A DNA stretch of 64,000 nt from an uncultured Candidatus Rokubacteria bacterium (GTDB lineage Bacteria > Methylomirabilota > Methylomirabilia > Rokubacteriales > DASRDR01): the NCBI GenBank assembly GCA_963708025.1, contig CAVPSB010000023.1:32001-96000 (forward strand), in the 5' to 3' direction. Positions 2,087 through 53,263 of the stretch are shown one piece after another (position 1 is the stretch's first letter; each line of letters begins with the position of its first letter). The position numbers and the translations under genes were made by a program. Below the pieces are notes generated by a model, which saw only the letters and a list, made by a program, of their open reading frames with translations, did no database searches and had not been told where the DNA came from.

Positions 2087-2158
2087 GAGCGTGTGAAGGG
2101 ATAGGGTCCTCCGGCACCCCCCTCCCCCCGGTGGGGGTGGGTGGGAGGTCCCCAAATG
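2087..2158 (+). repeat. Junction repeat family B (C-run/G-run hairpin ending GGGAGGTCNCNAA+ATG)
   Basis: GAGCGTGTGAA...CCCCCCTCCCCCCGGTGGGGG...GGGAGGTCCCCAAATG between the PPOX stop and purM; homologues listed below. Confidence 0.75.
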
Positions 2159-2176
2159 ATCCCTGAAGGGGAGCCA

Positions 2177-3292
2177 ATGGCGCGACCCGGCGGGTACACC
2201 TATCGCGCGGCCGGGGTCTCGACCAACGCGGAGCTGGGTCTCGCCGCCCTGCTGAAGTGGATCCAGCCCACGCTGGAGTTCCGGCGCGACACGGGCATCG
2301 GCCGGTCGGTCCTGGACATCGGGTACTTCGCCAACGTCATCGACCTCGGCCGGGGCCTCGGCCTGGCGCTGTCCACGGACGGCGTCGGCACCAAGGTGCT
2401 GGTGGCCGAGATGCTCGGTCGCTACGACACGATCGGGATCGACTGCGTCGCGATGAACGTCAACGACGTGATCTGCGTCGGCGCCGAGCCGATCGCCATG
2501 CTCGACTACATCGCCGTCGAGGCCGCCCGGCCCGACATGCTCGAGGCCATCGGGCGTGGGCTGCACGAGGGCGCGAAGCGGGCCGGGGTCAGCATCGTCG
2601 GCGGGGAGATCTCCCAGGTCAAGGAGATCATCCGGGGGGAGCGGGAAGGGGAAGGGCTCGACCTGGTCGGGATGTGCGTCGGGGTCGTCCCCCTCGACGA
2701 GGTGAACGTCGGCCGGGCCGTGAGGCCGGGCGACGTGCTCATCGGGCTGCGGAGCAGCGGCATCCACTGCAACGGCCTGACGCTGGCACGGAAGGCCCTG
2801 TTCCAGGCGGGAGGCCTGAAGCCGGACACGCACGTGCCGGAGCTCGGCCGGACGGTCGGCGAGGAGCTGCTGGAGCCCACCCGCATCTACGTCCCCGAAG
2901 TGCTGGACCTGCTCCGCCAGCGGCTGCCGATCCGGGCGCTCGTCAACATCACGGGTGACGGGCTCCTCAACCTGGCCCGGATCGACGCGCCGACCGGCTA
3001 CCGGATCGACGCCCTGCCCGCGCCGCCGCCGATCTTCGAGCTGATCCGCCGGGCCGGCCGGATCGACGATGCCGAGATGTACCGGGTGTTCAACATGGGC
3101 ATCGGCTTCTGCCTCGTCGTCCCGGCTGAGGCCGGCGTCGTGGCCACGGTCCACGAGACCGTCCGGCGCCACGGCGGCGAGAGCTTCGAGCTGGGCCGGG
3201 TCGTCGATGATCCCGAGCGCCGCGTCGCCCTGACCGAGAAGCGGCTCATCGGCCGAGCCGACCGCTTCCAGGAGGCGTCGAGCCCGCTCTGA
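2177..3292 (+). CDS. purM: Phosphoribosylformylglycinamidine cyclo-ligase (AIR synthetase); alternative start 2156
   Basis: YRAAGV, STDGVGTK, IGIDCVAMNVND, SSGIHCNG, ITGDG and VFNMGIGF motifs. Confidence 0.95.
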   Translation: MARPGGYTYRAAGVSTNAELGLAALLKWIQPTLEFRRDTGIGRSVLDIGYFANVIDLGRGLGLALSTDGVGTKVLVAEMLGRYDTIGIDCVAMNVNDVICVGAEPIAMLDYIAVEAARPDMLEAIGRGLHEGAKRAGVSIVGGEISQVKEIIRGEREGEGLDLVGMCVGVVPLDEVNVGRAVRPGDVLIGLRSSGIHCNGLTLARKALFQAGGLKPDTHVPELGRTVGEELLEPTRIYVPEVLDLLRQRLPIRALVNITGDGLLNLARIDAPTGYRIDALPAPPPIFELIRRAGRIDDAEMYRVFNMGIGFCLVVPAEAGVVATVHETVRRHGGESFELGRVVDDPERRVALTEKRLIGRADRFQEASSPL

Positions 3293-3349
3293 TCTGACGA
3301 ATCGCCCAGGCCTCCTGGGTCGGACCAGGCATGCCGGCCAGCATCGTGG

Positions 3350-4216
3350 TCAAGCCGCCGCTTCAAATCCTGACTTGAACTGAGCCAACAATTCGGTCGC
3401 TTCGGCAATCGGATCCGTGCCAGTCAGTCCTCGTGCCACATCTCTGACGAGGCGACGCGTCCACGCCGATTCGTTGACCAGGACGAGAATCTGTCTACGG
3501 GTTGTGGGTGCAGCAATCCGCCCGGCATCCATACCCAGGAGCCGCGCGCCGCCAAGCTCGACGTCGAAGTCCATGACCGCGAGGTCAATCTCCGCCCCAT
3601 ACAATCGATCCTCGTTGCCGGCATCGTGGTACGTGCGTAGCAGCGTCGCGAGATCGATCGCATCGCGTGGATCGTTGACTCCTCGATCTGCCCACGCGAC
3701 AAGCTTCATTAGCGCGAGCCCAGGCAACGAGGCCACACGAACGACAATGCCTGGAGCCACTTCCACGAGGACTGCGGCCGTGAGGGCCTCGCCGTATCCT
3801 GCCACGTTCATGAGTACCGATCCATCTGGCGGCCAGGCGATGGTGGTCTGGGGTTGCTCAACGCCTCCGAATGGAATCAGATCCAGCGGATATCCCCTTC
3901 GCCCTGAGGAAGGTTGGAGTCGGTGAGCCCGCGTCTTGTCTGGTTCGAACGCGCCCGATGCTACGAGGCACGCCTTGATCGCCTCGAATTGTGACCACCC
4001 ACTCACGACCACTCCGAAATCCATGTCATGGGTCGCGCGGTCGGTGACAAGCCCGAAGACACCATTGAGAATGATCTGCCGCGCCATCGCGCCAACCACG
4101 AAGTAGTCGAACTCGAGGTCTCGCGCAATGGTACTTAGCCACTGGAGGGCTTCCACAGTCAACTCGTCGAGGTGGCGCTCACGCGCGACGGAGAACAAGC
4201 TCGACCTGTTCTTCAC
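3350..4216 (-). CDS. AbiEii-family nucleotidyltransferase toxin (COG4849-like)
   Basis: Pol-beta NTase signature VVGAMAR...RATHDMDF; KLVAWADR and RDAIDL motifs; overlaps its upstream partner; lower GC than the flanks. Confidence 0.8.
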   Translation of the reverse strand: MKNRSSLFSVARERHLDELTVEALQWLSTIARDLEFDYFVVGAMARQIILNGVFGLVTDRATHDMDFGVVVSGWSQFEAIKACLVASGAFEPDKTRAHRLQPSSGRRGYPLDLIPFGGVEQPQTTIAWPPDGSVLMNVAGYGEALTAAVLVEVAPGIVVRVASLPGLALMKLVAWADRGVNDPRDAIDLATLLRTYHDAGNEDRLYGAEIDLAVMDFDVELGGARLLGMDAGRIAAPTTRRQILVLVNESAWTRRLVRDVARGLTGTDPIAEATELLAQFKSGFEAAA

Positions 4217-5258
4217 GGATCAGCTTCGCAATCTCCAGATTGCGTGGATCTAGCGTAGCCATGAGGTCTGCGTAGATGAGGAGCGGCGGCACAAGGTCTG
4301 GCCGCTGTGGATCTCCAGGGAAGTTCCAAAATCTGTCGAGGACTTCAACCTCGCCTTCGGGATCGGCGCGGAGCCGGTGGTCCTTCACGAGCTTGGTGAT
4401 TCGTTCGCGCGCCACTGCAGGATCGATGTAGATCGTGCAGGCGGCCGGCTTGAGATGCCCAGTGAGCTTGGTCCCGCCGACCTCGCCGCCCCAGAGCGCC
4501 CCATCGGTCAGGCGGGCATTCTTCCACCAGTCCGGCTCAAGGGCTCGGAATCGGCGCTGATTGAGTTTCGGGCGTAGCTTGATCGGGTAGTTGGTGACCC
4601 ATTCATCGAGCAGCCGTCCCGGCTCCAGCAAACGGCGGTTTCGAGTTCGCTTGCCTCCTATGATGTAGCCCCTGCGTTGGAGGTCGAAGAGAACCCAGCC
4701 TACGGCGCCGAGCGCAACGCCTGCGGCGCCGACGATCTCGCGGTAAGGCGCGTTGAGGAGCTCGGGCTTGCAGAGTAGTGCGAAGATGACTCGCAGCGCC
4801 GTTGCGTTGGCCGTGCCTCGAGTCTGCAAGTAGGTCGCCACCGGGCCATGCGGGCGCTCTCCGCGGATGTAGATGTACAGCCCGGGAACGCGGAGATAGG
4901 CATTCCCGACTGTGTCGAGGAACTGAAGGTCGATGTCCCGACAGCGGGCTGCGAGGTCGGGCGTGATATAGGGTGCGACGAGCACTCCTCGCCTGCCCAG
5001 GGGTTTGAGTCGATGCTTGACAGCGGCGAGGGCCACCGCTCGGTCGATGGCTTTGATCTCGACGAGGAAGCGTACTCGCTTTCCAAGCCCTTCGATGTCC
5101 ATCGCCGCGTCCGGCCGCACGTCATCCCGGACCTTGGGTTTCATGGCGCCGAGGCCAGCCTTGAGCCCAGTGATGCGCCTGAATGCGGCAAGCGCATTCT
5201 CCAGGAGCCTGTCTTGCCACTCTCGTGGACGCGCGGCTCGGTGCTTGGTACGCTTCAT
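4179..5258 (-). CDS. AbiEi-family antitoxin/transcriptional regulator (AbiEi_2, COG4861-like)
   Basis: FLDTVGNAYL, winged helix (YREIVGAAGVALGAV), WGGEVG and VPPLLIYADL motifs; directly upstream of the NTase. Confidence 0.8.
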   Translation of the reverse strand: MKRTKHRAARPREWQDRLLENALAAFRRITGLKAGLGAMKPKVRDDVRPDAAMDIEGLGKRVRFLVEIKAIDRAVALAAVKHRLKPLGRRGVLVAPYITPDLAARCRDIDLQFLDTVGNAYLRVPGLYIYIRGERPHGPVATYLQTRGTANATALRVIFALLCKPELLNAPYREIVGAAGVALGAVGWVLFDLQRRGYIIGGKRTRNRRLLEPGRLLDEWVTNYPIKLRPKLNQRRFRALEPDWWKNARLTDGALWGGEVGGTKLTGHLKPAACTIYIDPAVARERITKLVKDHRLRADPEGEVEVLDRFWNFPGDPQRPDLVPPLLIYADLMATLDPRNLEIAKLIREEQVELVLRRA

Positions 5259-5277
5259 CTGTTCATCTCGGCTCAGT

Positions 5278-5916: not shown

Positions 5917-6501
5917 CTACTGCTGGTAGCCGAAGAGGCGCCAGACGCCGCTCTCGCGGCGGGCGATCTCCAGCTCCCGCTCCCACCAGAAGAGCGAGAT
6001 CCACTGGCCGATGAAGGGCAGCCGACCTGACATCTCCCCGGTCGAGTAGACCCAGGCCTGGTCGCCGACCAGGCGGACCTCGTCGACCCGGACCTGCGCC
6101 CGCATGGCGTCGTAGATCCCGAACATGGCGGCGAGCTGGTTGCGGAGGGCCGCCTTGGTCAGCGGCCCGGTGCGGTACTGCTCGGAGATGTGGGCGAGCA
6201 CGCCGTGCAGGTCCCGGGCCTCGAAGCGCTGGATCGCGGTGCCGAGCGTGGCCCGCAGCTCGGCGACGACCTGGGGGGGCGCCGCGACTCCGGGGGCCGC
6301 AGGGGTCGAGGGCGCCGGGGCGGGCGGCGCCGGGCTCGGGGCCGGCGCGGCGGAGGGGCGACCTGGCGTCGCGGGGGGACGCCCCGGCGCGGCAGCCGGC
6401 GGGACCGGAGGCGGGGGCGGGGGCGCGACCTGGGCCAGGGCGAGGCCAGTGACCAGCACGAGCGCGGCCGCGGCGCCGAGCCCGACCTGCCGCCCCGTCA
6501 C
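5917..6501 (-). CDS. Secreted Pro/Ala-rich-linker protein with NTF2/SnoaL-like domain
   Basis: GTG at 6501 overlaps an upstream TGA. Signal peptide ending ALA-Q, long Pro/Ala linker, then AIQRFEARDLHGVLAHISEQY...ARRESGVWRL. Confidence 0.65.
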   Translation of the reverse strand: MTGRQVGLGAAAALVLVTGLALAQVAPPPPPPVPPAAAPGRPPATPGRPSAAPAPSPAPPAPAPSTPAAPGVAAPPQVVAELRATLGTAIQRFEARDLHGVLAHISEQYRTGPLTKAALRNQLAAMFGIYDAMRAQVRVDEVRLVGDQAWVYSTGEMSGRLPFIGQWISLFWWERELEIARRESGVWRLFGYQQ

Positions 6502-7095
6502 CGTCGCCGCCCGTTGAGGGCTTCCTCGAGCCGCCGGCCGAGGACGGCCCGCAGCCGCCAGGTCGGGCGCCAGGCGAGGGCGCGGCGCGGCAGGCCGCGG
6601 AAGTCGTCGAAGAGCGAAGTACACCACCGGCGTGATCACGAGCGTGACCAGCAGGCAGAGCGCCTGGCCGCCGACCACCGCCACCGCGAGGGCGGCCCGG
6701 GAGGCGGAGCCGTCGCCCCGGCCCATCGCGACCGGCAGCATGCCGGCGATGATCGCGAGCGTCGACTTCGCCACGACTTCCTCCCAGGCGAGCAGGCTTC
6801 CCACCGTCTCCACGCTGCGCTGGACCGCCCGAGCCTCCACCGCGGCCGTCGTGATCCGGACGGCGGGTCGATCGGGCGTCCGGCCCGGTGGGCTGCTGCC
6901 GTTCTCCCGGCGCTCGGACTTCGCCTGGCTCGACTGACTGCAGGCGCCGAGGCCGAGGGCGAGCAGGAGCAGCACGGCGAGCGTGTGAACGAATCGCGTC
7001 CTCCGACTCCCCCCTCCCCCCAGTGGGCGGGGGAGGGGGGTTGGGGGGGTGGGCGGGAGGTCCCGAACGGTGATCGCGGCGCGGCCTCCCATCAC
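6498..7095 (-). pseudogene. Chimeric remnant: RND adaptor (MFP) N-terminus joined to the last helices of an AcrB-type RND permease
   Basis: Lipoprotein signal LGAC and VQRSVETVGSLLAWEEVVAKS are directly followed by TLAIIAGMLPVAMGRGDGS..LAVAVVGG..LVITPVVY. Removing one T near 6618 restores YSLFDD and a stop at 6498. Confidence 0.75.
6979..7067 (+). repeat. Family B repeat, antisense and in frame inside the MFP 5' end
   Basis: GAGCGTGTGAACGAAT..CCCCCTCCCCC..GGGGGAGGGGGG..GGGCGGGAGGTCCCGAA; very similar to 53125-53215. Confidence 0.8.
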
Positions 7096-7553
7096 CCCTC
7101 CGGGGTCGTGGCGGACACCAGGGCGTCGAGGCCGGCGATCAGCTTCCGGCGCTCGTCAACCGAGAGGCGGTCCAGGACGCCGGCCAGCCCGGCGATCTGC
7201 GCGCCTTCCAGCTCGCGTACGAGGGCGTCGCCCTCCCGCGTGAGCCGGAGCCGCGTGGCCCGGCGGTCCCGCGGGTCCTCCTCGCGGAGGAGGAAGCGCT
7301 TCTCGGCGACTCGATCGACCACCTGGCTGATCGCCGGCGGGGTCACCGCGTACGCCCGCGCCACCGCGCTCATCGGACAGCCCGGGTGCCGGTGGACGTA
7401 GAAGAGGACCTGCGCCTGCGCGTAGGTCAGCTCGAGCTCGAGGGCGCGCTTCCAGAGGATCGGGCGGAACGCCGAGGAGACCATCGCCTGCAGCAGCTCG
7501 AGGAGCCGCCGGGCATCGTCCTGCAAGGTGGGATGGCCAACCGCGCGGCCCAT
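7092..7553 (-). CDS. MarR-family transcriptional regulator
   Basis: [41 protein letters not shown]; coupled (ATGA) to the efflux remnant. Confidence 0.9.
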
Positions 7554-17298: not shown

Positions 17299-18201
17299 AT
17301 GAAGCGACCCGGTGTGAGGCCACAGCCTGACCGCCGTGCGAACGGCCGGCCGGCACGATGGCTGGGCGGACTGCTCGCGATCCTGCTGGTGGCGGGGGCG
17401 GTCGCGCCGGCCGCCGGCCAGTCCAAGGTCGTGATCGTGTCGACGACCACGAGCACGCAGGACTCCGGCTTGCTCGACGTCCTGGTGCCGATGTTCGAGA
17501 AGCAGACCGGCTATTCCGTCAAGACGGTGGCGGTCGGCACCGGCCAGGCGCTCGCCCTGGCCGCCCGGGGGGAAGCCGACGTCACCCTCGCTCACGCGCC
17601 GGGCCTCGAGAAGAAGTACGTCCAGGACGGGAAGATGCTCAACCGCCGGCTCGTCATGTACAACGACTTCGTGATCGTCGGGCCGCCCGGGGATCCGGCG
17701 GGGATCAAGGGCACGAAGGCCGCGGTCGAGGCGCTCCGGCGCATCGGCGACACCCGGGCACGCTTCGTCTCGCGCGGGGACAACTCCGGCACGCACAACC
17801 TGGAGCAGGCCCTGTGGAAGCAAGCCGGCCTGGCGTCGAAGGGCGACTGGTACATCGAGTCCGGCCAGGGCATGGGCGCCACCCTGACCATCGCGAACGA
17901 CCGGCAAGCCTACACGCTCACCGACCGGGCGACGCTCCTGGCTTTCGCCAAGCGGGTCAGCTTGCCGATCATGGTGGAAGGGGACCGGCCGTTGCTGAAC
18001 GTCTACTCCGTGATGGAGGTGAACCCGGCCAACGGCCCGCGGGTGAACACGGCCGCGGGGAAGGCCTTCGCCGACTTCATGGTCGCCCCGGAGACCCAGG
18101 CCGTCATCCGGACCTTCGGCGTCGAGAAGTACGGCCAGCCGCTCTTCGTCCCGATCGCCGGGAAGAGTGAGGACGAGATCGGCGGTGAGCCGGGAGTGTG
18201 A
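17299..18201 (+). CDS. tupA: Tungstate ABC transporter substrate-binding protein
   Basis: TTTS signature (STTTSTQDSGLL); FVSRGDNSGTH and GQGMGATL motifs. Confidence 0.93.
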   Translation: MKRPGVRPQPDRRANGRPARWLGGLLAILLVAGAVAPAAGQSKVVIVSTTTSTQDSGLLDVLVPMFEKQTGYSVKTVAVGTGQALALAARGEADVTLAHAPGLEKKYVQDGKMLNRRLVMYNDFVIVGPPGDPAGIKGTKAAVEALRRIGDTRARFVSRGDNSGTHNLEQALWKQAGLASKGDWYIESGQGMGATLTIANDRQAYTLTDRATLLAFAKRVSLPIMVEGDRPLLNVYSVMEVNPANGPRVNTAAGKAFADFMVAPETQAVIRTFGVEKYGQPLFVPIAGKSEDEIGGEPGV

Positions 18202-18342
18202 CGGCATCGTGCCCCTCCGGGGTTGGGGGCTTCCGGCTCCCCCCTCCCCCGGCCACAGGCCGAAGGCCGTCCATCGGTGGGGGAGGGGGGCCAGAGGCCG
18301 AAGGCCGTTGACGAATCGGGTGGGCGGGAGGTCCCGAAGATG
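18194..18342 (+). repeat. Family B/E repeat between the tupA stop and tupB start
   Basis: C-run/G-run hairpin with two GGCCANAGGCCGAAGGCCGT modules; ends GGGCGGGAGGTCCCGAAGATG. Confidence 0.8.
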
Positions 18343-19036
18343 GACCTGATCGGCGAAGGCCTCGTCCGGGCGCTCCGCCTGGTCCTGGGCGGCGACCCCG
18401 AGGTGCTCGGGGTGACCTGGCTCTCGCTCCGGCTCTCGGGCGCCGCCACGCTCCTCTCGCTCGTCGTCGGCCTGCCGCTCGGCACCGCTCCTGGCCCTCG
18501 TGCGCTTCCCGGGCCGCGGGCTCGTGGTCTCGCTCGTCAACACCGGCATGGGGCTGCCCCCGGTGGTGGTCGGACTGTTCATCTCGGTCCTCCTCTGGCG
18601 GAGCGGGCCCCTCGGGTTCCTCGAGCTGCTCTACACGCCCACGGCGATCGTCCTCGCCCAGTTCGTCATCGCGGTGCCCATCGTCACCGGGCTCACCCTG
18701 GCGGCGGTCCAGCAGATCCCCGAGCGCTTTCGGTTGCAGATGCTGGCGCTGGGGGCCTCGCGGGTCCAGCTGGTCTGGGTCCTGATCCGGGAGGCGCGGC
18801 TGCCCATGCTGGCCGCCCTCATGGCGGGCTTCGGCGCGGTCATCTCCGAGGTCGGCGCCTCCCTGATGGTCGGCGGCAACATCCGGGGCCAGACCCGTGT
18901 CCTGACCACGGCCACCGTTCTCGAGACCGGCAAGGGGAACTTCGACGTCGCCATCGCGCTCTCGGTTATCCTGTTGGGGGTGACCTTCCTGGTGAACTGG
19001 GCGCTCACGTGGATCCAGCAGCGGCGCGGCGCCTGA
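18340..19036 (+). CDS. tupB: Tungstate ABC permease, one frameshift near 18490
   Basis: MDLIGEGLVRAL..GLPLGT in one frame; RFPGR..NTGMGLPPVVVGL..EVGASLMVGGNI..TRVLTT in the next. Confidence 0.85.
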
Positions 19037-19048
19037 CGGAGGTGTGAC

Positions 19049-19816: not shown

Positions 19817-19924
19817 GCGGCGCCGCCCGAGGGCCGGGCGGATCCGCCGCGCGCCGATCCGCCTTCGCGTTCCTGATAAACTGATCGCTCACCATGTGGC
19901 AGCCGCCGAGGCGCGACTAGCTCC

Positions 19925-25071: not shown

Positions 25072-25773
25072 ATGGAGCGCGCGAGGTCCGCGAGTGCCGG
25101 CGACGCGGCGAAGTCGGAGGGCTGGCTGATCACGATCGAGGGCGTGGAAGGGGCGGGCAAGTCCACGCAGATCGCCCGGCTGGCCGCGTGGCTCGAGTCG
25201 GTCGGCACCCGGGTCGTGTCGACGTCCGAGCCGGACGGCTCTCCGCTGGGCCCTTGGGTCCGCCGGGTCCTGGCCGACCGGTCCCCGGTCGACCCGTTGA
25301 CCGAGTGCTTCCTGTTCGCGACCGCCCGGGCCGAGCACGTCCGCCGGGTGATCCGCCCGGCGCTCGGGCGCGGCGCCGTCGTCCTGTGTGACCGGTACGC
25401 CGACTCCACCGTCGCCTACCAGGGCTACGGGCGGGGCGTCCCCCTCGAGGTCGTCGCCGAGTTGAACCGCCTGGCGACCGACGGGCTCACGCCGGATCTC
25501 ACGCTCGTCCTCGACCTCGACCCGGACGAGGGGTTGCGGCGAGTGCGCCGCCGGCTGGCGCCGGCCGGAGCCGGGGAGGTGGCCGGGGCGGCCGATCCCT
25601 TCGAGCGGCTCGGGCTGGAGTTCCACGAGCGCGTCCGAAAGGGATATCGGGCGATCCAGGAGCGGGCGCCGGACCGCGCGGTGCTGATCGACGCCGGGCG
25701 ATCCGAAGAGTCGGTGGCGGCGGCCATCCGCGCGGTGGTGGGGGCGCGGCTGGGACTGGACGCGCCAGGATGA
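25072..25773 (+). CDS. tmk: Thymidylate kinase
   Basis: IEGVEGAGKSTQ and CDRYADSTVAYQGYGRG motifs. Confidence 0.95.
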   Translation: MERARSASAGDAAKSEGWLITIEGVEGAGKSTQIARLAAWLESVGTRVVSTSEPDGSPLGPWVRRVLADRSPVDPLTECFLFATARAEHVRRVIRPALGRGAVVLCDRYADSTVAYQGYGRGVPLEVVAELNRLATDGLTPDLTLVLDLDPDEGLRRVRRRLAPAGAGEVAGAADPFERLGLEFHERVRKGYRAIQERAPDRAVLIDAGRSEESVAAAIRAVVGARLGLDAPG

Positions 25774-25932
25774 GACATCCTCTGTCAACCCTCTCGCTCC
25801 GCCGACCTCGTGCCGCGTCGGGACTGCGGGGCGCCCCCCCTCGCCCCGGCCAAAGGCCGGAGGCTGTCGACTGGTGGGGAGGGGTCGCCAAAGGCCGAAG
25901 GCCGTCGAAGGGTGGCGGTGGACCCGGATGAG
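25768..25932 (+). repeat. Family E junction repeat flanked by a GGATGAG duplication
   Basis: GGATGAG at 25768-25774 (tmk stop) and 25926-25932 (holB start); body similar to 26960-27120 and 32302-32450. Confidence 0.8.
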
Positions 25933-26950: not shown

Positions 26951-26959
26951 GGTGGCCGG

Positions 26960-27222
26960 AATGAGACACCCCGTGTCCCTCGCGTTCCGCCGACTTCGGA
27001 CCGCGTCGGGACCGCGGGGCGCCCCCCCTCCCCCCGGCCAAAGGCCGGAGGCCGTCGACAGGTCGGGAGGGGTCGCCAAAGGCCGAAGGCCGTCGATGGG
27101 TGGGGGTGGACCCAAATGAGCAACGTGATGGAGCCACCCCTCTCGTTCCGCCGACTCGGACCGCGTCGGGACCGCGGGCCCCTCCCGGCGGGTGGGAGGG
27201 GTCGGGGGTGGACGCAAATGAG
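26960..27222 (+). repeat. Tandem long+short family E repeats with duplicated ricT start
   Basis: AATGAG at 26960, 27115 and 27217; 37-bp segment 27102-27138 is repeated at 27204-27240 with 3 mismatches. Confidence 0.8.
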
Positions 27223-31300: not shown

Positions 31301-31490
31301 TCGGGGGGGTCTCGGAAGACCCCCCCGATGCCCCCCCTTCGGAGGCCGCGGCAAGCCGCGGCTCGAAGTGGAACGCCATGGCCGCGAGGCTTGGAGGCAG
31401 CGCGTTGCGAGAAGCCAATGGGTGGCGCGATGGGAGCCGCCCGGATGTGGTCGCCGACCTGAGAGCACATGGGCGGGAGGTCACGAACTG
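31301..31490 (+). repeat. Composite repeat: family C hairpin + conserved middle segment + family B 3' end
   Basis: GGGGGTCT-CGGA-AGACCCCC; 31364-31441 matches 43616-43692; ends GGGCGGGAGGTCACGAACTG. Confidence 0.75.
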
Positions 31491-31496
31491 AAGAAG

Positions 31497-32306
31497 ATGG
31501 AGCTTGCCGGCGGGAGTGTGCTGCTCGTCGATACGCACGCGCACCTCCACGATGCTGCGTTCGCGGAGGACCGGGCGGCCGTGCTCGCCCGGGCCCGGGC
31601 GGCCGGCGTCGCGCGGCTCTTGACCGTCGGCACCGACCCGGACGCGGCGCGCGCCGCCGTGGCCCTGGCCGCGGCCGAGCCGGACGTCTACGCGGCGGTC
31701 GGCATCCACCCCCACGACGCGGCGAAGGCGGACGCCGACGCCCTCGCGGTCATCGCGGCGCTGGCCCGTGCGCCCCGGGTGGTCGCCATCGGCGAGATCG
31801 GCCTCGACTACTACCGCAACCTCTCGCCGCCCGACGCCCAGCGGGACGCGCTGCGCGTGCAGCTCGCGCTGGCCCGCGAGGTCGGCAAGCCCGTGCTCCT
31901 CCACTGTCGGGAAGCGCACGCCGACCTGCTCGCCGTGCTGGCGGCGGAGGGGATCGGGCGGGCCGGCGGGATCATGCACTGCTTCTCGGGGGAGCTGGCG
32001 GTCGCCCGGCGCTGTCTCGACCTGGGCTTGCTGGTCTCGATCGCCGGGCCCGTGACCTACCCGAACGCGCGCCGGCTCGGCGAGGTCGTCCGCGCGCTCG
32101 GCCTCGATTCGCTCGTGATCGAGACCGACTGCCCGTACCTGCCGCCCCAGCCGTGGCGCGGGAAGCGCAACGAGCCGGCCTATCTGCCGGCCACCGCCGC
32201 CCGGATCGCCGAGCTCACCGGCGTTCCCGTCGCGGACGTGGCGCGGCGGACGACCGCCACCGCCTGCGCGCGTCTGGGGATTCCCGTGCCGGAGGCCGAC
32301 CGATGA
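31497..32306 (+). CDS. tatD: TatD-family deoxyribonuclease (alternative start 31518)
   Basis: DTHAHL, GIHPH, GEIGLDY, HCRE, HCFSG and ETDCPYL motifs. Confidence 0.95.
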   Translation: MELAGGSVLLVDTHAHLHDAAFAEDRAAVLARARAAGVARLLTVGTDPDAARAAVALAAAEPDVYAAVGIHPHDAAKADADALAVIAALARAPRVVAIGEIGLDYYRNLSPPDAQRDALRVQLALAREVGKPVLLHCREAHADLLAVLAAEGIGRAGGIMHCFSGELAVARRCLDLGLLVSIAGPVTYPNARRLGEVVRALGLDSLVIETDCPYLPPQPWRGKRNEPAYLPATAARIAELTGVPVADVARRTTATACARLGIPVPEADR

Positions 32307-32514
32307 GATCCCCCCCGGCGGCGCGGTCCGGCCTCGTACCGCGTTGGGACCGCGGGCCGCCCCCCCTCCCCCCGGCCAAAGGCCGGAGGCCGTCGGTTGG
32401 TGGGGAGGGGTCGCCAAAGGCCGAAGGCCGTCAATGGGTGGGGGTGGGCCCGCCACCGGAGGGGCGCGACGTCCCGAGGGCCGCAGGCCCGAGGCGTCGC
32501 GGCGAGACGGATGA
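32302..32514 (+). repeat. Family E + family D repeats between the tatD stop and M28 start, flanked by GATGA
   Basis: GATGA at 32302-32306 and 32510-32514; E body 32307-32450; D hairpin 32466-32500. Confidence 0.75.
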
Positions 32515-35480: not shown

Positions 35481-35514
35481 GTCGCCATGCTACCAGACCG
35501 CCGGGGGGTAGCCC

Positions 35515-36045
35515 TTATTCGGCAAGGCGCTGGATGCCCACCCGGTGCCGCCGCGCCAGGGCCTGGTAGGCCTCCGGGTTGACCCGCACCCAACGCTCGG
35601 CCGCGGTGCCGGCGAGCGATCGCTTCACCTCGGCAGGGACGCCGGCCACCAGGACGCCGCCCGGCACGGCCATTCCGGCCGGGACGACGGCACCGGCGGC
35701 GACCAGGCTGCGCGCCCCGATCCGGGCCCCGTCGAGCACGACCGCCCCGTTCCCGACGAGGCACTCCTCCTCAAGGATCGCGGCGTGCACCATGCAGAGG
35801 TGGGCGACGGTCACGCCGGGGCCGATCTCGACAGGGCCGTCCGGCGTGGTATGGACCACCGCGTTGTCCTGCACGTTGGCGCCGGCCCGGAGGACGATCG
35901 GCGCGAAGTCGCCGCGGAGCACGACCCCGTACCAGACCGAGGCGCCGGCCTCCACGGTGACGTCCCCGATCAGCGTGGCGGTGGGGGCGATGAACGCCTC
36001 CGCGTGTACCCGGGGACGGCGGCCTTCGAAGCTGTAGAGCGGCAT
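35515..36045 (-). CDS. Gamma carbonic anhydrase-like hexapeptide-repeat protein
   Basis: IAPTATLIGDV..VLRGD..NVQDNAVVH..HLCMVH. Confidence 0.92.
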   Translation of the reverse strand: MPLYSFEGRRPRVHAEAFIAPTATLIGDVTVEAGASVWYGVVLRGDFAPIVLRAGANVQDNAVVHTTPDGPVEIGPGVTVAHLCMVHAAILEEECLVGNGAVVLDGARIGARSLVAAGAVVPAGMAVPGGVLVAGVPAEVKRSLAGTAAERWVRVNPEAYQALARRHRVGIQRLAE

Positions 36046-36124
36046 GGCGTCTCTCCGCGCGAGCGGTCGGACATCCGACCTGCCCATGATAGCAGCCCTT
36101 GACGGCGGCCGGCCGGTCGAGCGC

Positions 36125-36210
36125 GGGCGTGTGAAAGGAATCGGGGCCTCCGGCTCCCCCTTCCCCTCAGTGGGTGGGGGGGGTTGGGGGGGTGGGAGGG
36201 AGGTCCCGAA
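36125..36210 (+). repeat. Family B repeat, antisense to flanking genes
   Basis: GGGCGTGTGAA..CCCCCTTCCCC..GGGAGGGAGGTCCCGAA. Confidence 0.75.
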
Positions 36211-36214
36211 GATC

Positions 36215-37210
36215 TCAGCCGGGAGCGAGGTCGCGCCAGGCCGGCAGGCCGCCGAGGGAGGTCGCGGCGCGCACGCCGCGGACCACCGCGTCGGCGACAC
36301 AGTCCGCCGCCGCCAACCCGAGCACGTCGAGGGGCGCGGTCGTCTCGGCTCCCGTCGCGAGGCAGAAGAGCGTGTCGCCGTCCACGGTGGTGTGTGGCGG
36401 TGAGAGCGTCGCCGCCAGCCCCAGGTGGGCGAGGCTGGCGAGCCGCCCGGCCTCGACCTTCGTCAGCCGCGCGTCCGTCGCCACGACGCCGATCGTGGTG
36501 TGGGTCCCGCGAAAGCCGGGCGGTGGCGCCCCGGCGCGGAGCGCGCGGGCTGTGTCGACGAGCCGGTGACCATCCGGGGCATCGCGGGCGCCGGCAAGCA
36601 GGGCGCCCGTGACGGGGTCCCGCACGTCCCCCAGCGCGTTGACGGCGACGAGGGCCCCGACCGTCGCGGCCCCGGCCCGCCGGCTGGCCGTCCCGATTCC
36701 GCCCTTCATCGCGCGCGACAGCCCGAAGAGCTTCCCGAGCGAGGCCCCGGTTCCGGCGCCGACGGAGCCCTCCGCGACCGGCCCGGCGGTCGCCGCCGTG
36801 GCGGCCCGCTCCCCCATCGACCGGTCGGGCCGAGCGCGCCGGTCGCCGACGGCGAGGTCGTACAGGATCGCTCCGACCACGAGGGGGACGACACCGGCCG
36901 GCGTGGGGAAGCCGATGCCCCGCGCTTCGAGGTGCGCCATCATCCCGAAGACCGTCTCGAGGCCGAAGGCGCTGCCGCCCGCCAGGACGACCGCGTGGAT
37001 CCGCTCGGCGAGGTGTCGCGGGTCGAGGAGATCGAGGCCGGCGATCCCCGAGGCCCAGCCGCGCACCTCGACCGAGGCGACGGCGCCGTCGGGGCAGAGG
37101 ATGGCCGTGCAGCCGGTCGCGCCGACGGGATCCGTGGCGTGGCCGACGAGGAGTCCCGGGACGTCGGTCAGCGCGCCGGAGATTCGAGACCTCCAGCGCC
37201 TCCCGCCCAC
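36215..37210 (-). CDS. P1/S58 (DmpA-like) aminopeptidase; start uncertain (GTG 37210 or ATC 37183)
   Basis: LTDVPGLLVGH, LAGGSAFGL, GSVGAGTGA, KGGIGTAS and HTTVDGDTLF motifs. Confidence 0.88.
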   Translation of the reverse strand: MGGRRWRSRISGALTDVPGLLVGHATDPVGATGCTAILCPDGAVASVEVRGWASGIAGLDLLDPRHLAERIHAVVLAGGSAFGLETVFGMMAHLEARGIGFPTPAGVVPLVVGAILYDLAVGDRRARPDRSMGERAATAATAGPVAEGSVGAGTGASLGKLFGLSRAMKGGIGTASRRAGAATVGALVAVNALGDVRDPVTGALLAGARDAPDGHRLVDTARALRAGAPPPGFRGTHTTIGVVATDARLTKVEAGRLASLAHLGLAATLSPPHTTVDGDTLFCLATGAETTAPLDVLGLAAADCVADAVVRGVRAATSLGGLPAWRDLAPG

Positions 37211-37282
37211 CCCCCCAGCCCCCCTCCCCCACCCACCGGGGGGAGGGGGGGGCCGGAAGGCCCCACGGGTTCACACGCCCTC
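37184..37282 (-). repeat. Family B repeat supplying the upstream stop and the downstream SD
   Basis: Minus strand GAGGGCGTG-TGA..CCCCCTCCCCC..GGGGGAGGGGG..GGGCGGGAGG..GGAGGTCTCGAATC. Confidence 0.75.
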
Positions 37283-38539
37283 AGTGGAGGGGGCCTCACT
37301 GCCGCCTCTGTCCTTCCATATTAACGGGTCGCGGCGCGGAGGGGGCGCGGCACGCGGCGGACCTGGTTCGACGGGAAGGCGGCCCAGGACGACCTCGCCG
37401 GCCACCTCCAGGCTGCGCTCGACCAGCGCGCGCACGAACGGGATGCGGCGGGGCGCGTAGTCGGGGTCCGCCAGGGCCCGGGCCACCGCGACCGCCTGCC
37501 GGGCCTCGGCGGGCCGGTCCGTCGCGTCCAGCACGAAGGCCTGCTCCTCCAGCCGTCGCTGCCAGAGCCGTCGCGCGTCGGCGCCGAACTGGCTCTCGAC
37601 CGTCCGGTCGATCAGGGCGGCGTGGCGCTCCGCCTTCACCTGGTCGGTGACGACCAGACGGCTTTCGTTGGCCTGCAACAGCTCGACGGCCTCACCCTGA
37701 ACGGAGGGGGGATCGAGGAACCAGCCGGCCAGCTCGGGGACCTCGAGGAGCCGGGCCGAGGCCTCGAGTGCCGCCGGGTCGTCGGCGACGGTCTCGGAGG
37801 GGATGCGGGCGTAGATCGGCGGCGGGCCCACCGCCTCGCCCGGGTCGAGCAGCGGCTGCCACCGGGCCAGCTCGGCGGGGACCGGGGTGCCGGCCGCCGC
37901 GTGCAGGCGACTCGCCTCGGCGAACAGGTGAACGGCCCACGCCGGCGGTGCTTCCACCCACGGCAGGGGGCTCTCCTCCCGGATTGCGCGGAGCCGCTCG
38001 CCGAGCCGCTTCTTGGCGATGGGCCCGCCGGCCACGTCGAGGATCCCGGTGAAGTCGTTGAGGACGCCCGTGAGCAGCGTGCGCTCGCCGGACGGTCCCT
38101 CGAACAGGATCCAGCAGCCCCGGGAGCCGGTGCCGTCCACCGCGGACACCCAGGCCTCCGTCGGCACCGGCGCCATCGGCGCCGGCTTCGCGGCGGGCGG
38201 CTTCGGGGTGGGCGTCACCCCGGCCTGGCGGAGCCGGTAGAGCGCGCGGCGCAGCGCGGTGCGGACGGCCTTCGGGAGGCCAGGCCGCTCCGCCTCCGCG
38301 AGGGCATCGGCCGCCGTCCGGCTCGCCACCGACGCCAGGGCCTCGGCGGCGGCGATCGCCCCGTCGGGCCGCCCGTTGAGGCACCGGCGGAGCAGTGGCA
38401 CGCTGCCAGGCCCGTGCCGGCGGGCGAGGAGCCTCAGGCTGTCGGCCAGCTCGGTCGCCGGGATCGTGGCCAGGGCGGCGGCGACGGCCTCGGGACTCGG
38501 CTCCTCGCCGACCAGCGCCTCGAGCGCGGCGCCTACCAT
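37271..38539 (-). CDS. Hypothetical protein with HEAT-like N-terminus
   Basis: 422-aa ORF with host-like codon usage; VRTALRRALYRLRQAG and SAVDGTGSR segments; overlaps the upstream gene. Confidence 0.65.
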   Translation of the reverse strand: MVGAALEALVGEEPSPEAVAAALATIPATELADSLRLLARRHGPGSVPLLRRCLNGRPDGAIAAAEALASVASRTAADALAEAERPGLPKAVRTALRRALYRLRQAGVTPTPKPPAAKPAPMAPVPTEAWVSAVDGTGSRGCWILFEGPSGERTLLTGVLNDFTGILDVAGGPIAKKRLGERLRAIREESPLPWVEAPPAWAVHLFAEASRLHAAAGTPVPAELARWQPLLDPGEAVGPPPIYARIPSETVADDPAALEASARLLEVPELAGWFLDPPSVQGEAVELLQANESRLVVTDQVKAERHAALIDRTVESQFGADARRLWQRRLEEQAFVLDATDRPAEARQAVAVARALADPDYAPRRIPFVRALVERSLEVAGEVVLGRLPVEPGPPRAAPPPRRDPLIWKDRGGSEAPSTEGV

Positions 38540-43564: not shown

Positions 43565-43567
43565 ACC

Positions 43568-43786
43568 TCGGGGGCCTCGGAAGGCCCCCGAGGCCCCCCC
43601 GCGGCGGCCGCGGCGCGAAGTGGAACGCCAGGGCCGCGCGGCCGGAGCCGGGGGGTGCGAGAAGCCGATGGGCGGCGAGAATGGGGACCGCCGTCCCAGA
43701 GTGTCTGAAGCAGTCGATGCTTCCGGCCCCCCTCCCCCCGGTGGGTGGGGGAGGGGGGTTGGGGGGTGGGCGGGAGGTTACGAATG
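43568..43786 (+). repeat. Composite repeat C + middle + B between the two permeases
   Basis: GGGGGCCT-CGGA-AGGCCCCC; 43616-43692 matches 31364-31441; ends GGGCGGGAGGTTACGAATG at the permease start. Confidence 0.8.
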
Positions 43787-44673: not shown

Positions 44674-45657
44674 CTACACGCGGACCGGGGTGAACTCGGT
44701 CGTGTAGCAGTCGGCGGTCGGCACCCGCTGCTTCTGGGCCTTCAGGTCGACCATCGTCGTCTGCATGATGTCGATCGCTTCGACGCTGATCGCGCCGTCC
44801 CTGGAGAAGAGCGGGCCGGTGATCTCGGCGGCGCGGGCCACGGCGTTCTCGGGCCAGCCCAGGGTCTTGGCCGCGATGGCGTGGGCCTCCTTCGGCGACT
44901 CGCGGATGAGCTTCACCCCCTGGAAGAAGCCCTTGAGGATGCCCCCGATGGCCGCCTTCTGGCCCTTGATGGCGTCGTCGGTGCAGTAGGCGGCCAGGCT
45001 GATCCACTTCGGGGTGACCGAGTCGAGCCGGAACAGGATCCGTGATTTGCCCTGGAGCTCCGAGACCGCGCCCGAGTCGCCGAAGATGAAAGCGTGGATC
45101 TCCCCGCGAGAGGCGGCGGCGAGGATGGCATCGTTCCCCCCCAGGCCGAGGATCTTCACGTCGCGCTCGGGATCCCATCCCTGCTGCCGGGCCACCAGGT
45201 TGGCGAAGACCCACGTGGTGGAGCCGACGCGGGTGACGCCGATCGACTTGCCCTTGAGGTCGGCGAGCTTGGCGATGCCCGGCACCACGTTGAAGGTGAA
45301 CGAGTTGCCCCCGACGACGGTGGCGACGTACCGGATCGGGACGCCCTCCGCCCGGAAGACCGGCACGTCGGTGGCCCCGGTGACGCCGACCAGGATCTGC
45401 TCCCCGACGACCGCCTTGACGAGGTCGGGCCCGCCCCGGAACGGCTGGAACTCGACGTTCACCCCGGCCGCCTTGAAGAACCCCTTGTCCAGCGCGACCG
45501 CGATCGGCCCCACCAGCCCGAAGTCCGAGAGGACGGCGGTGCCGATCTTGACCGTCGGCCCCTGGGCGGGGACCGGCCACGGGCGCGTGACCACGCCGGC
45601 GGCGGTCACCAGGCCGCCGGCCGTCAGCCGGAAGAACTGCCGTCGTGAGGTCTGCAT
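44674..45657 (-). CDS. NMT1/SsuA-like ABC substrate-binding protein, Tat signal (paralogue 2)
   Basis: MQTSRRQFF; KGFFKAAGVNVE; DLKGKSIGVTRVGS. Confidence 0.88.
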   Translation of the reverse strand: MQTSRRQFFRLTAGGLVTAAGVVTRPWPVPAQGPTVKIGTAVLSDFGLVGPIAVALDKGFFKAAGVNVEFQPFRGGPDLVKAVVGEQILVGVTGATDVPVFRAEGVPIRYVATVVGGNSFTFNVVPGIAKLADLKGKSIGVTRVGSTTWVFANLVARQQGWDPERDVKILGLGGNDAILAAASRGEIHAFIFGDSGAVSELQGKSRILFRLDSVTPKWISLAAYCTDDAIKGQKAAIGGILKGFFQGVKLIRESPKEAHAIAAKTLGWPENAVARAAEITGPLFSRDGAISVEAIDIMQTTMVDLKAQKQRVPTADCYTTEFTPVRV

Positions 45658-45677: not shown

Positions 45678-46658
45678 TCACAGCCGGACCGGAGTGAACT
45701 CCGCCGTGTAGCAGTCGGCGGTGGGCACCCGCTGCTTCTGGGCCTTCAGCTCGACCAATGTCGTCTGCATCACGTCGATGGCCTCGACGTTGATGGCGCC
45801 GTCCTTGGAGAGGAGCGGCCCCGAGACCTGGTGGGCGCGCAGGACGGCTTCCTCCGACCAGCCGATGGCCTTGGCCGCGATGGGAGCGGCCTCCTTCGGC
45901 GACTCGCGCAGGAGCTTCGAGCCCTGGAAGAACCCCCGGAGGGTGCGCTGGAGCGCGTCCTTGTTCCCCTTGATGTACTCGTCGGTGCAGTAGGCCGACT
46001 GGCTGATCCACTTCGGCGTCACGCTGTCCAGCCGGACGAGGATCTTCGACTTCCCCTGGAGCTCGGTCACGGCTCCCCCGTCGCCCCAGACATAGGCGTG
46101 GATCTCGCCCCGGGTGAGTGCTGCCAGCTGGGCGTCCAGCCCGCCGAGCCCGAGGATCTTGACGTCGCGCTCCGGATCCCAGCCCTGCTGCTTGGCGAGC
46201 ATGACGGCGAAGACCCAGGTGGTGGCGCCGACGCGGGTGACCCCGATCGACTTGTCCTTGAGATCGGCGAGCCGGGCGATCCCGGGGGCCACGTTGAGGG
46301 TGAAGTGGTTCCCGTCCACGGTGGTCGCCACGTAGCGGACCGGGACCCCCTCGGCGCGGAAGACGGGAACGTCCGTGCTGCCGGTCACCCCGATCTGGAC
46401 TTGATTGGCGAGGACGGCCTTGACGAGGTCGGGGCCACCGCGGAAGGGCTGGAACTCGACGTTCACCCCGGCGGCCTTGAAGTAGCCCTTCTCCAGTCCG
46501 ACCACGATCGGGGAGACGAGCGAGTAGTCGGCGAGCACCGCCGTCCCGATCTTGACGGTCGGCACCTGCGCCGGCACGGGCCGGGGTCGGGCGGCGGCAG
46601 CAGCCGCCACCACACCGCCGGCGGTGACACGGAAGAACTGACGCCGGGACGTCACCAT
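45678..46658 (-). CDS. NMT1/SsuA-like ABC substrate-binding protein, Tat signal (paralogue 1)
   Basis: MVTSRRQFF; colinear with and highly similar to the downstream paralogue. Confidence 0.88.
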   Translation of the reverse strand: MVTSRRQFFRVTAGGVVAAAAAARPRPVPAQVPTVKIGTAVLADYSLVSPIVVGLEKGYFKAAGVNVEFQPFRGGPDLVKAVLANQVQIGVTGSTDVPVFRAEGVPVRYVATTVDGNHFTLNVAPGIARLADLKDKSIGVTRVGATTWVFAVMLAKQQGWDPERDVKILGLGGLDAQLAALTRGEIHAYVWGDGGAVTELQGKSKILVRLDSVTPKWISQSAYCTDEYIKGNKDALQRTLRGFFQGSKLLRESPKEAAPIAAKAIGWSEEAVLRAHQVSGPLLSKDGAINVEAIDVMQTTLVELKAQKQRVPTADCYTAEFTPVRL

Positions 46659-52465: not shown

Positions 52466-52540
52466 GCGGCCGGCAACCAGTCGCCGGTGATGCGGAAGCG
52501 ACGGGAAGGCCGGAGGGGGGGCCCGAGCTGCCGGAGGGAC

Positions 52541-52588
52541 GCGGCGTCCCGAGGGCCGCAGGCCCGAGGCGCCGTGGCGATCCGGATG
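52541..52588 (+). repeat. Family D hairpin, copy 2
   Basis: GCGGCGTCCCGAGGGCCGCAGGCCCGAGGCGCCG..CGGATG; matches 32466-32513. Confidence 0.7.
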
Positions 52589-52642
52589 GAGCGCGCAGCT
52601 CCCCCCCGGCCCGACTGAGCGGCCGGTGGCGTTGCCCGGCGC

Positions 52643-53101
52643 ATGGCGGTCCCGGTGGTCATCGACGGCTACAACCTGCTCTACGCGCGCGGGGAAGCGC
52701 CGTCGGCGGCCGGCCGGGAGCGGCTGGTCCGCGACCTGGTGCGCTGGGCCGAGCGCCGCGGCCGGCGCGCGGTCCTGGTGTTCGACGCCTGGGCCCAGGG
52801 CGCGCGGGTCGAGCACGAGGAGGCGCGGGGTCCGGTGACGGTGTGCTTCACGCGGTACGGCGAGCGGGCCGACGCGTGGATCGTCCGTCGGGTGGCGGAG
52901 AGGCCGGAGGCCGTGGTCGTCACCTCGGACCGGGCCGTCGGCCAGGCGGCCCGGCGCCGGGGGGCGGCCGTCATCGGCGCCGAGGCTTTCCTCGCTCGAC
53001 TGGAGGCGGCGCTGAGGCCGGACGCCGAGGACGAGAGCGCGGAGCCGGCACCGCCCGGACGCCGCCTGGGACGCCAGGCGAGCTGGCTGCGCGGCCTGTG
53101 A
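52643..53101 (+). CDS. NYN-domain (YacP/Rae1-like) ribonuclease
   Basis: IDGYNL, LVFD, ADAWI and VVTSD motifs. Confidence 0.85.
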   Translation: MAVPVVIDGYNLLYARGEAPSAAGRERLVRDLVRWAERRGRRAVLVFDAWAQGARVEHEEARGPVTVCFTRYGERADAWIVRRVAERPEAVVVTSDRAVGQAARRRGAAVIGAEAFLARLEAALRPDAEDESAEPAPPGRRLGRQASWLRGL

Positions 53102-53124
53102 GGGTGCGCGCGGGGTGGATGTGA

Positions 53125-53263
53125 GAGCGTGCGAACGAATTTGTCCTCCGACTCCCCCCTCCCCCCGGTGGGTGGGGGAGGGGGGTTGGGGGGGTGGGCG
53201 GGAGGTCCCGAACTGAAGCAATCGATTCCGGCGGCTTCCGGGTGGGTGGGAGGTCTCGAGCTG
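53125..53263 (+). repeat. Family B repeat plus a second 3' end at the protease 5' end
   Basis: GAGCGTGCGAACGAAT..GGGCGGGAGGTCCCGAACTG, then GGGTGGGAGGTCTCGAGCTG; both CTG are in frame with the gene. Confidence 0.8.

Follow-up and report, generated by a model that had tools for sequence, protein, structure and literature searches.

Mycobacterial interspersed repetitive units (MIRUs), whose original description is reportedly that of Supply et al. in 1997, form variable tandem arrays. According to passages in two accounts, they are 40–100 bp long, occur in 40–50 copies per genome, and lie inside operons, with which they are co-transcribed; the same passages tell of filled and empty sites, tetranucleotide direct repeats, G+C-rich internal inverted repeats, and open reading frames (ORFs) whose ends overlap the adjacent genes by 4 nt (PMC3184786, PMC12548453). 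Two related palindromic repeats, here called B and E, occupy the junctions between genes in a 64,000-nt stretch of DNA (the window) from an uncultured Candidatus Rokubacteria bacterium of the Methylomirabilota (GenBank assembly GCA_963708025.1, contig CAVPSB010000023.1, positions 32,001 to 96,000). B and E are probably two subfamilies of one lineage-specific, non-autonomous mobile repeat of the MIRU kind that has been greatly expanded in this genome.

The window (G000:C23:32001-96000, where G000 is the genome code) belongs to an assembly of 8.17 Mb with 71% G+C in 49 contigs, and its completeness and contamination are estimated at 99.67% and 8.18%. The closest named relative of the window’s tatD comes from a “Candidatus Methylomirabilota” metagenome-assembled genome (MAG), with 73% identity. 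An earlier note, made from the letters of the window alone, had listed about 12 related copies, and related sequence is present at all 12 places when these are read directly; a within-window repeat search sorts them into families D2–D7 with 3–4 copies each. A first profile built from five window copies gave 454 matches across the whole genome, and the refined B profile (nhmmer, E<0.01) gave 499, of which 257 are near full length. The 499 matches lie on both strands (276 plus, 223 minus) and on 37 of the 49 contigs, and they cover 51,770 bases, or 0.63% of the genome. When the 257 near-full copies were aligned with 50 nt of flanking sequence, conservation started abruptly at TGA and ended abruptly after CCCGAA(C)TGA, and identity to the majority consensus had a median of 0.835 (quartiles 0.79 and 0.88). 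Taken alone, the C-run motif is weakly above chance, with 21 matches against 11.4 +/- 3.5 expected and 21 reached in 2 of 100 shuffles. The B family as a whole is far beyond chance, given the number of matches, the number that are near full length, and the abrupt loss of conservation at both ends.

A representative B copy (6976-7071) consists, from 5' to 3', of TGA, G, a 5' module with GTGTGA, a CCTCC segment, two C-runs, and a short loop, followed by two G-runs as pairing partners of the C-runs, one more G-run, GGGAGGT, CCCGAA, in most cases a C, and TGA again. The GTGTGA of the 5' module places a second TGA one frame over from the first. Most B copies are 86–100 nt long, and variants with one to three extra GGCC-type modules of ~21 nt each measure about 110–150 nt. 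The outermost ends of B, as read from the consensus, are dissimilar, and the sole inverted repeat is subterminal on the left. E is longer (about 120–165 nt; e.g., 25764-25932) and has the C-run/G-run core, the GGCC-type modules, and the CCCGAA end in common with B. It differs from B in its 5' module and in the replacement of GGGAGGT by GGTGGA. The hairpin and 3' end described earlier as shared by all copies are indeed common to the two subfamilies; the 5' modules and the mode of working are not. The RNA hairpins have predicted energies of -40 to -59 kcal/mol, and in the consensus fold, the Shine-Dalgarno (SD) sequence is predicted to lie inside or next to the loop of a small 3' hairpin. The hairpin is a thermodynamic prediction only, and any regulatory role of it would be putative.

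Tandem arrays are part of the picture as well. There are 22 in the genome, each with 2–7 units in head-to-tail order, in a count that by construction covers same-strand arrays only. The array at C2:215905-216640 holds seven head-to-tail units of ~100 nt, a B variant with a different 5' module, and resembles a variable number tandem repeat. CCCGA-ATGA stands at every unit boundary of this array, and its last unit finishes on the start codon of the next gene.

The TGA(G) on the two sides of the repeat is a duplicated target and not element sequence. Among the 227 B copies with both ends anchored, 32 have CTGAG to the left and to the right and six have CTCAG in both places, with no mixed case (Fisher p = 3.6e-7). 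CTCAG is the reverse complement of CTGAG, and the copies flanked by it are the antisense ones, with 38 of 38 concordant. Ten copies have TCA on both sides, and in eight of them the one on the right serves an opposite-strand gene as its stop codon. Since the orientation of the flank matches the strand of the gene in both comparisons, the flanking TGA or TCA follows the gene and not the element. In 19 copies the left TGA follows a base other than C (G or A), and in 11 of these the right TGA is nevertheless preceded by C. A 4-bp NTGA duplication in B was ruled out for this reason, and because the C is kept, it is counted as part of the element and the repeat as TGA(G). The earlier note had the element carrying its own stop and start. 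Instead, the 5' stop and the 3' TGA are for the most part duplicated target, and what the element itself adds is the terminal A, the back-up TGA, and the SD sequence.

Empty orthologous sites, which the earlier note had proposed looking for, are present in relatives at several junctions, with a single TGAG or with tight ATGA or GTGA overlaps. For example, the junction between an Rrf2 gene and a cysK-like gene runs CACATC-TGAG, element, TGAG-G in this genome and CACATC-TGAG-G, with a single TGAG, in relative G009. At the AIRS|CorC junction, the distance from the stop to the first aligned codon is 172 nt here, with TGAG on both sides, compared to at most 58 nt in 18 of 19 relatives; six of these short junctions consist of TGAG, 2–3 nt, and the start codon, and the nineteenth relative has a 274-nt insert of its own. 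The tmk|holB junction measures 154 nt and has GGATGAG on both sides, and in 10 of the 12 correctly parsed relatives (16 loci were processed), it is at most 26 nt, with ATGA or GTGA overlaps, when the gap is taken to the first aligned holB codon (query residue 8–14). The tatD|M28 junction is 204 nt with GATGA at both ends, against at most 55 nt in 18 of 19 relatives, and the DUF2914|tatD junction is 202 nt, against at most 29 nt in 12 of 16 relatives, three of the other four having an extra gene. Between the two permease genes, the distance is 219 nt in this genome and -4 to 125 nt in 14 relatives, and between tupA and tupB, the relatives have TGA, 7–8 nt, and ATG. The PNPOx|purM and YacP|HtrA junctions are not syntenic in the searched relatives, and no empty site was obtained for them.

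The permease|permease junction has been filled more than once. Relative G010 (contig C10, locus L043) has an E-like element of its own there, which shows a GGCC module and, ahead of a GTG start, a G-run/GGCCCG end. Its insert and the one in G000, where a B copy follows a repeat of another family, F, are independent insertions at one junction.

The placement of the repeat in the genome was judged against 7,232 genes called with a purpose-written codon-bias caller, whose stops are exact and whose starts are approximate and chosen conservatively. By midpoint, 451 of the 499 B copies are intergenic. Between co-directional genes, 330 copies are sense and 39 are antisense (binomial p = 1.5e-58), and a further 60 lie between convergent and 22 between divergent genes. 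The earlier note had set random position and orientation against its own reading, and both are strongly non-random genome-wide. In the window itself, 10 of the 12 copies are co-oriented with the genes, as had been stated, those at 6979 and 36125 being antisense. The 5' end is intact and the upstream gene co-oriented in 305 copies; the stop of that gene coincides exactly with the first TGA of the element in 157 of them, and with the internal GTGTGA in 14. The two earlier examples of GTGTGA as the upstream stop, tupA (18199-18201) and the gene ending at 37271, bear this out. Antisense B copies have a distinct 3' tail, (G/A)ATC. The sense bias would come from selection acting after insertion in both orientations.

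The contribution of B to the downstream gene is an SD sequence. The 16S rRNA of this genome ends in ...CACCTCCTTT, and the GGGAGGT of B is complementary to that tail. GGAGG is found upstream of 1,442 of 7,218 called genes, with a spacer to the start that peaks at 4–8 nt and has its mode at 6. Among the 314 sense B copies with intact 3' ends, the called start of 90 (29%) falls between -5 and +8 nt from the CCCGAA end, with peaks at 0, 1, 3, and 4, which equal SD spacers of 6–10 nt. B thus holds an SD at an optimal distance from its end, and the ribosome probably makes use of it. The start is 9–20 nt away in 42 more copies, often with an AGGAGG of its own, so that 132 (42%) have a start within 20 nt; it is called inside the element in 24 and lies farther off in 158. 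The earlier statement that most copies end at a start codon holds in the window, where orthologue N-termini back the permease start at 43784 and the tupB start at 18340, but not for B genome-wide. In copies without the final C, such as the one at 43696-43785, the last A and the duplicated TGA form ATGA, and an ATG is rebuilt in the frame of the former overlap. There is no frame constraint on B, since length modulo 3 is distributed 19/17/13 among the 49 copies with TGA on both sides. The internal TGA serves as a back-up stop, as the tupA example illustrates.

In E, the junction is bridged in a different way. E is flanked on the left by ATGA or GTGA, which is the original overlap, and its right end is ...CCC-N-A-ATGA, with A and not C before the TGA. 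In 17 of 22 copies with paired ends, an open frame leads from the left (A/G)TG, which overlaps the upstream TGA, to the right TGA, which overlaps the downstream ATG. These mini-ORFs fall into length classes of 39, 52, 53, 65, and 71 codons, all in frame and multiples of 3; two mis-paired tandem copies and one mis-anchored right end are among the five exceptions. A separate count made from the right ends of E found 15 of 21 in frame and open, with 3 in each of the two remaining frames (p = 4e-4). The right start opens a frame of at least 60 codons in 20 of 22 copies, and the left TGA is the called upstream stop in 13 of 22. The bridging ORF of E is preserved in frame, and it is likely to be translated. 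The SD-like motif that had been offered as the means of the whole family fits B; E works not mainly through an SD and has the mini-ORF instead.

A mechanism can be proposed from these features. The element would insert at a TGA stop followed by G and duplicate TGAG. The left TGAG copy would remain the stop of the upstream gene, and the right copy would come to lie just before the next gene or within its start codon. Sense copies would survive in operons because translation of the downstream gene is restored. In B (about 90–100 nt), this could be accomplished by the GGGAGGT-CCCGAA end, which would provide a canonical SD 6 nt or slightly more upstream of the element end; where B ends in ...GAA followed by TGA, the last A would rebuild ATG in the frame of the former ATGA or GTGA overlap, and the second TGA near the 5' end would close one more frame. 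In E (about 120–165 nt), the start of the mini-ORF would overlap the upstream stop (ATGA), and its stop would overlap the downstream start (ATGA), so that ribosomes could be handed on across the element through two 4-nt overlaps. The idea of a non-autonomous element tolerated inside operons is thus retained from the earlier note, with stop, ribosome-binding signal, and start all preserved at the junction; the origin of the stop, the mechanism of E, and the novelty of the element’s kind had to be corrected.

The expansion is specific to this lineage. A first look with the B sequence gave 460 candidates in this genome, compared to at most 55 in each of 40 relatives, 10 of which have a match at E<=1e-3. 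The versions in the relatives are diverged, have the core and 3' end in common with it, and likewise lie between a stop and a start codon. A variant of the 3' module, searched for as a 22-nt pattern, occurs 27 times in this genome. Within the family, five of 20 further genomes have 1–3 matches each, and in the rest of the phylum, two of 230 have one match each; as the pattern differs by one G from the main consensus, it samples only a variant and undercounts everywhere. RNA runs contain small shares only. Contigs from four public soil runs, each of a different study, were compared over window positions 18001-38000. They are 90–99% alike, mostly break at repeats, and reach the elements at the same places (e.g., 24477-25840, 25910-27006, and 35589-36128). 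Because all four meet the elements at the same places, the insertions are no assembly artefact and are common to related strains.

As the earlier note had it, the window has no mobilising gene, and there is none with matching ends in the assembly either. B and E are too short to encode a transposase. The genome has five DDE_Tnp_1 (IS4/IS5-type) and 10 IS110-type transposase loci; PF13586 gave no match in it, and PF13358 gave one match, below the cut-off. No B copy lies at the ends of any of these 15 loci, and two of the 15 have any B match within 4 kb. When an autonomous element with B ends was sought, five long-range pairs of ends turned up, 790–5713 nt apart, and the four inspected enclose ordinary genes. 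Extragenic palindromes of the REP/BIME type, mobilised by a RAYT (Y1 HUH) transposase, would share the G+C-rich palindromic core, the high copy number, the intergenic location, and, in the case of B, the lack of coding capacity, and a position after the stop would then reflect REPs at the 3' ends of genes. However, the RAYT/IS200 domain Y1_Tnp (PF01797) has 0 matches in a genome estimated to be 99.7% complete, and the control was positive in 6 of 14 genomes. The units, at about 90–165 nt with asymmetric ends, are also too long compared to the 21–65 nt given in a passage on REPs (PMC3184786). The 22 arrays are head-to-tail and not alternating (in a count that is same-strand by construction), and the TGAG flanks are duplicated. 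REP/RAYT identity was rejected on these grounds and is highly improbable. One could also consider the elements as DDE-type MITEs (miniature transposable elements with inverted repeats) of an IS5/Harbinger-like element, moved in trans, a proposal that would refine the MIRU-like reading: the position at stop codons would be due to the choice of a C-TNA-G target, and the rest to selection. Elements of the IS5/Harbinger type make 3-bp TNA duplications, and the duplicated core T(G/C)A in a palindromic CTNAG context, the presence of both orientations, and the five DDE_Tnp_1 matches all fit. On the other side, the outermost ends are not inverted repeats, the sole one being subterminal on the left; no B end lies beside any of the five DDE or 10 IS110-type genes; the empty sites fit a 4-bp TGAG duplication and not one of 3 bp; and E has A, not C, before TGA. 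A classical MITE identity fails on terminal inverted repeats and a matching insertion sequence, although the target duplication and the lack of a transposase of its own do fit. As a statement about the enzyme, the IS5/Harbinger-type reading is possible but unlikely.

The elements could, alternatively, be cis-regulatory RNA modules of the host (intercistronic hairpins for processing or stability, or attenuators of translation) that recombination or gene conversion would have spread and that would be kept for regulation. The strong sense bias in operons speaks for this, as do the stability of the predicted hairpin, the SD in or beside the loop of a small 3' hairpin in the consensus fold, and the same insertions in strains from four soil studies. 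It is nevertheless a poor fit, and we consider it improbable. The orthologous junctions in 15–20 relatives work without the elements, the flanking genes are functionally unrelated, the target is duplicated, antisense copies exist, and the expansion is limited to one of 251 genomes of the phylum. There is no Rfam match in the entire window on either strand at gathering thresholds, and no hairpin covariation in the 12-copy alignment. A more far-reaching suggestion is that the repeats represent a class of stop-codon-seeking transposons whose enzyme reads TGA-G strand-specifically, and/or portable intercistronic cassettes adopted by the host. Two features hint at this class of transposon, the asymmetry of the ends and the different 3' tails of the sense and antisense subtypes. 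If the cassette version were true, the ratio at which the flanking genes are translated would be set or switched jointly by the C-run/G-run hairpin, the CCTCC segment, and the terminal SD, and through insertion, hundreds of operons would have a tunable junction in place of a rigid 4-nt overlap. This suggestion is speculative and unlikely.

Several observations weigh against the preferred reading of B and E as a mobile repeat of MIRU kind that is tolerated where it restores translation. The gain in folding of the hairpin over shuffled sequence is only modest (z = -1.0 to -2.65), these scores being weak because shuffled G/C-rich sequence folds well too, and the covariation term is +0.49, with a double change in one of 22 pairs. 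Clean two-sided duplication is seen in 38 of the 227 anchored copies, and in 98 neither flank has such a form. Only 29% of the sense B copies (42% within 20 nt) adjoin a called start. The gene caller is crude, and its starts are biased downstream. The p-values, including the 1.5e-58 for orientation, overstate independence since the copies are related by descent. An account of orientation by selection only does not explain the distinct 3' tail of the antisense copies. Finally, none of the 15 joints listed for the four soil runs skips an element, which speaks neither for nor against recent movement, and as no transposase with matching ends is present in the assembly, mobility itself is something we infer.

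The individual copies in the window illustrate how varied the outcome of insertion can be. The B profile matches the window seven times (2081-2159, 6976-7071, 18223-18341, 36125-36214, 37183-37286 on the minus strand, 43696-43785, and 53119-53217), and the E profile matches it at 25764-25932, 26955-27120, and 32302-32451 and, in truncated form, at 27135-27183. The gene names given earlier for the neighbours, purM-like (AIRS), tmk, holB, PSP1/ricT, tatD, PBP-like tupA, and ABC permeases, agree with Pfam, “tupB” being the one that has no Pfam match. All copies below are on the plus strand except the one at 37183..37286.

The B copy at 2081..2159, a short variant without the second G-run, lies between a PNPOx-like gene (1679-2086) and the purM-like gene. 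Its left TGA (2084-2086) is the stop of the PNPOx-like gene, and its last A and right TGA form an ATGA (2156-2159) in frame with the purM-like gene, which more likely uses its own start at 2177 than this ATGA. The near-consensus copy at 6976..7071 is antisense to both of its minus-strand neighbours, a MarR gene (7092-7526) and the gene at 5917-6975. A long variant with two GGCC-type modules (18186..18339, with TGAG at 18186-18189) lies between the tupA-like and tupB-like genes. Here the internal GTGTGA is the tupA-like stop (18199-18201), four codons beyond the ancestral TGA, because a 1-nt deletion shifted the ancestral stop out of frame, and GGGAGGT is 8 nt upstream of the tupB ATG at 18340, a start confirmed by orthologues. 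In place of the tupB-like ORF (18340-19047), the gene caller prefers an overlapping frame (18500-19036). One soil-run contig omits 1 nt at 18488, inside this ORF, and a frameshift or assembly error within it is possible.

The E copy between tmk and holB (25764..25932) has a left ATGA with the tmk stop (25771-25773) and a right ATGA with the holB ATG at 25928, joined by an open mini-ORF of 53 codons, where relatives have a plain ATGA or GTGA overlap. The next (26955..27120), after holB, has an open mini-ORF of 52 codons, with its ATG 9 nt past the holB stop and its end in the ATGA at 27116-27119. It is followed by a truncated tandem E copy (27116..27221), 102 nt long and in frame between ATG 27116 and ATG 27218, either of which could start the PSP1/ricT gene. 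The copy after tatD (32302..32451) contains the tatD stop (32304-32306) within its left ATGA, and an unrelated 77-nt repeat comes next; the composite has ATGA again at its far end, where the M28 peptidase ATG is at 32511, and relatives have a single overlap. The 77-nt repeat (family D10; 32437-32513 and 52512-52588, 82% alike) contains a GGGCCGCAGGCCC-type hairpin, and the copy that comes after the E copy at 32302 finishes at the ATGA of the M28 peptidase gene.

Before tatD, whose ATG is at 31497, there is an internally deleted B copy (31460..31491) that has kept both ends (TGAGAGC... and ...GGGAGGTCACGAAC + TGA) and is preceded by the different ~160-nt repeat of family F. The B copy between two ABC permease genes (43696..43785) also has a family-F repeat before it. 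Its last A begins the permease ATG at 43784, 6 nt after GGAGG; the permease N-terminus is confirmed by orthologues, which mostly have a GTGA overlap or a short gap. Family F is a repeat of ~130–160 nt at 31297-31459 and 43567-43695 that begins right after a TGA stop. Each of these F repeats immediately precedes a B copy, which makes some of the inserts at junctions two-family composites. The copy at 36125..36214 belongs to the antisense subtype, with GATC as its 3' tail, and the TCA directly after it (36215-36217) is the stop of a minus-strand S58 peptidase gene. The minus-strand copy at 37183..37286 is sense to its minus-strand neighbours, and its internal GTGTGA is the stop (37271-37273) of the gene at 37271-38539. 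The last insert (53119..53262), before an HtrA-like gene, combines a near-consensus B copy (53119-53217) with a partial second 3' end at about 53236-53262. At this YacP|HtrA-like junction (53099-53262), four relatives have an extra gene of ~650–780 nt, and G000 is without the extra gene and has the B copy and the partial second 3' end instead.

Other observations in the window concern neither B nor E. In contigs of three soil runs, each from a different study, 33483 is joined to 33825; the joint has 3 nt in common and leaves out 341 nt, and with them a 112-codon minus-strand ORF (33494-33832). At a second soil-run joint (35047-35168), 120 nt are replaced by 6 letters. A 300-nt direct repeat that is 80% alike (family D1; 44676-44975 and 45680-45979) lies in two adjoining minus-strand genes of equal size, 44674-45657 and 45678-46658, which are probably tandem paralogues.

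Mobile DNA is normally expected to break operons, and here hundreds of insertions at gene junctions leave both genes readable. Two solutions are seen within one repeat family, a ribosome-binding site at a fixed distance in B and a bridging mini-ORF in E, and together they offer a large natural data set for the rules of translational coupling and re-initiation. There are practical consequences for annotation too: without masking of the repeats, wrong calls will be made for starts beside them, for small ORFs, and for short N-terminal extensions. A literature search on Rokubacteria and Methylomirabilota brought up no printed account of such repeats. A passage on Rokubacteria gives their non-coding fraction as 8–17%, and the main text of that paper mentions neither repeats nor intergenic or palindromic sequence (PMC5712423). 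The repeats may explain part of this large fraction, B alone making up 0.63% of the genome studied here.

Among the known systems, the Correia elements of Neisseria have a TA target. Correia/NEMIS elements resemble B and E as small non-autonomous repeats that are co-transcribed with their neighbours and whose RNA hairpins can affect mRNA, but they differ in their terminal inverted repeats and their promoter or IHF motifs, and the passages seen describe neither rebuilt stop/start junctions nor an SD at a fixed distance (PMC2229807). The REP/BIME and RAYT systems are alike in being high-copy, extragenic, G+C-rich palindromes downstream of genes, as portrayed in parts of two papers (PMC3184786, PMC2817692), whereas the repeats described here are longer, with asymmetric ends, head-to-tail arrays, a duplicated target, and no RAYT in the genome.

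The MIRUs come closest. Going by the passages cited at the outset, E shows all of their architectural points, though its ~120–165 nt exceed their size of 40–100 bp, and B shows all but the ORF, which is replaced by a canonical SD with no frame constraint. Both systems favour operons and one orientation (here 451 of 499 intergenic, and 330 sense against 39 antisense), both have filled and empty sites with tetranucleotide repeats (here TGAG, twice when filled and once when empty), and both have internal inverted repeats, which here are predicted hairpins. Tandem arrays, with up to seven units in the 22 found, are a further likeness. The differences are the other phylum, a copy number about 10 times higher (499 B matches compared to 40–50), and the antisense copies, roughly 11% of those in co-directional junctions, which are placed on opposite-strand stop codons. 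The target, too, is defined here as a TGA stop and then G, which is sharper than in the MIRU accounts as far as the passages go. The element is at most an analogue of MIRUs, likened to them by architecture, for its host is a Methylomirabilota MAG and not Mycobacterium. By that analogy, the design is not new in kind, and what B and E would add is the extension of a mycobacterial design to an uncultivated soil phylum.

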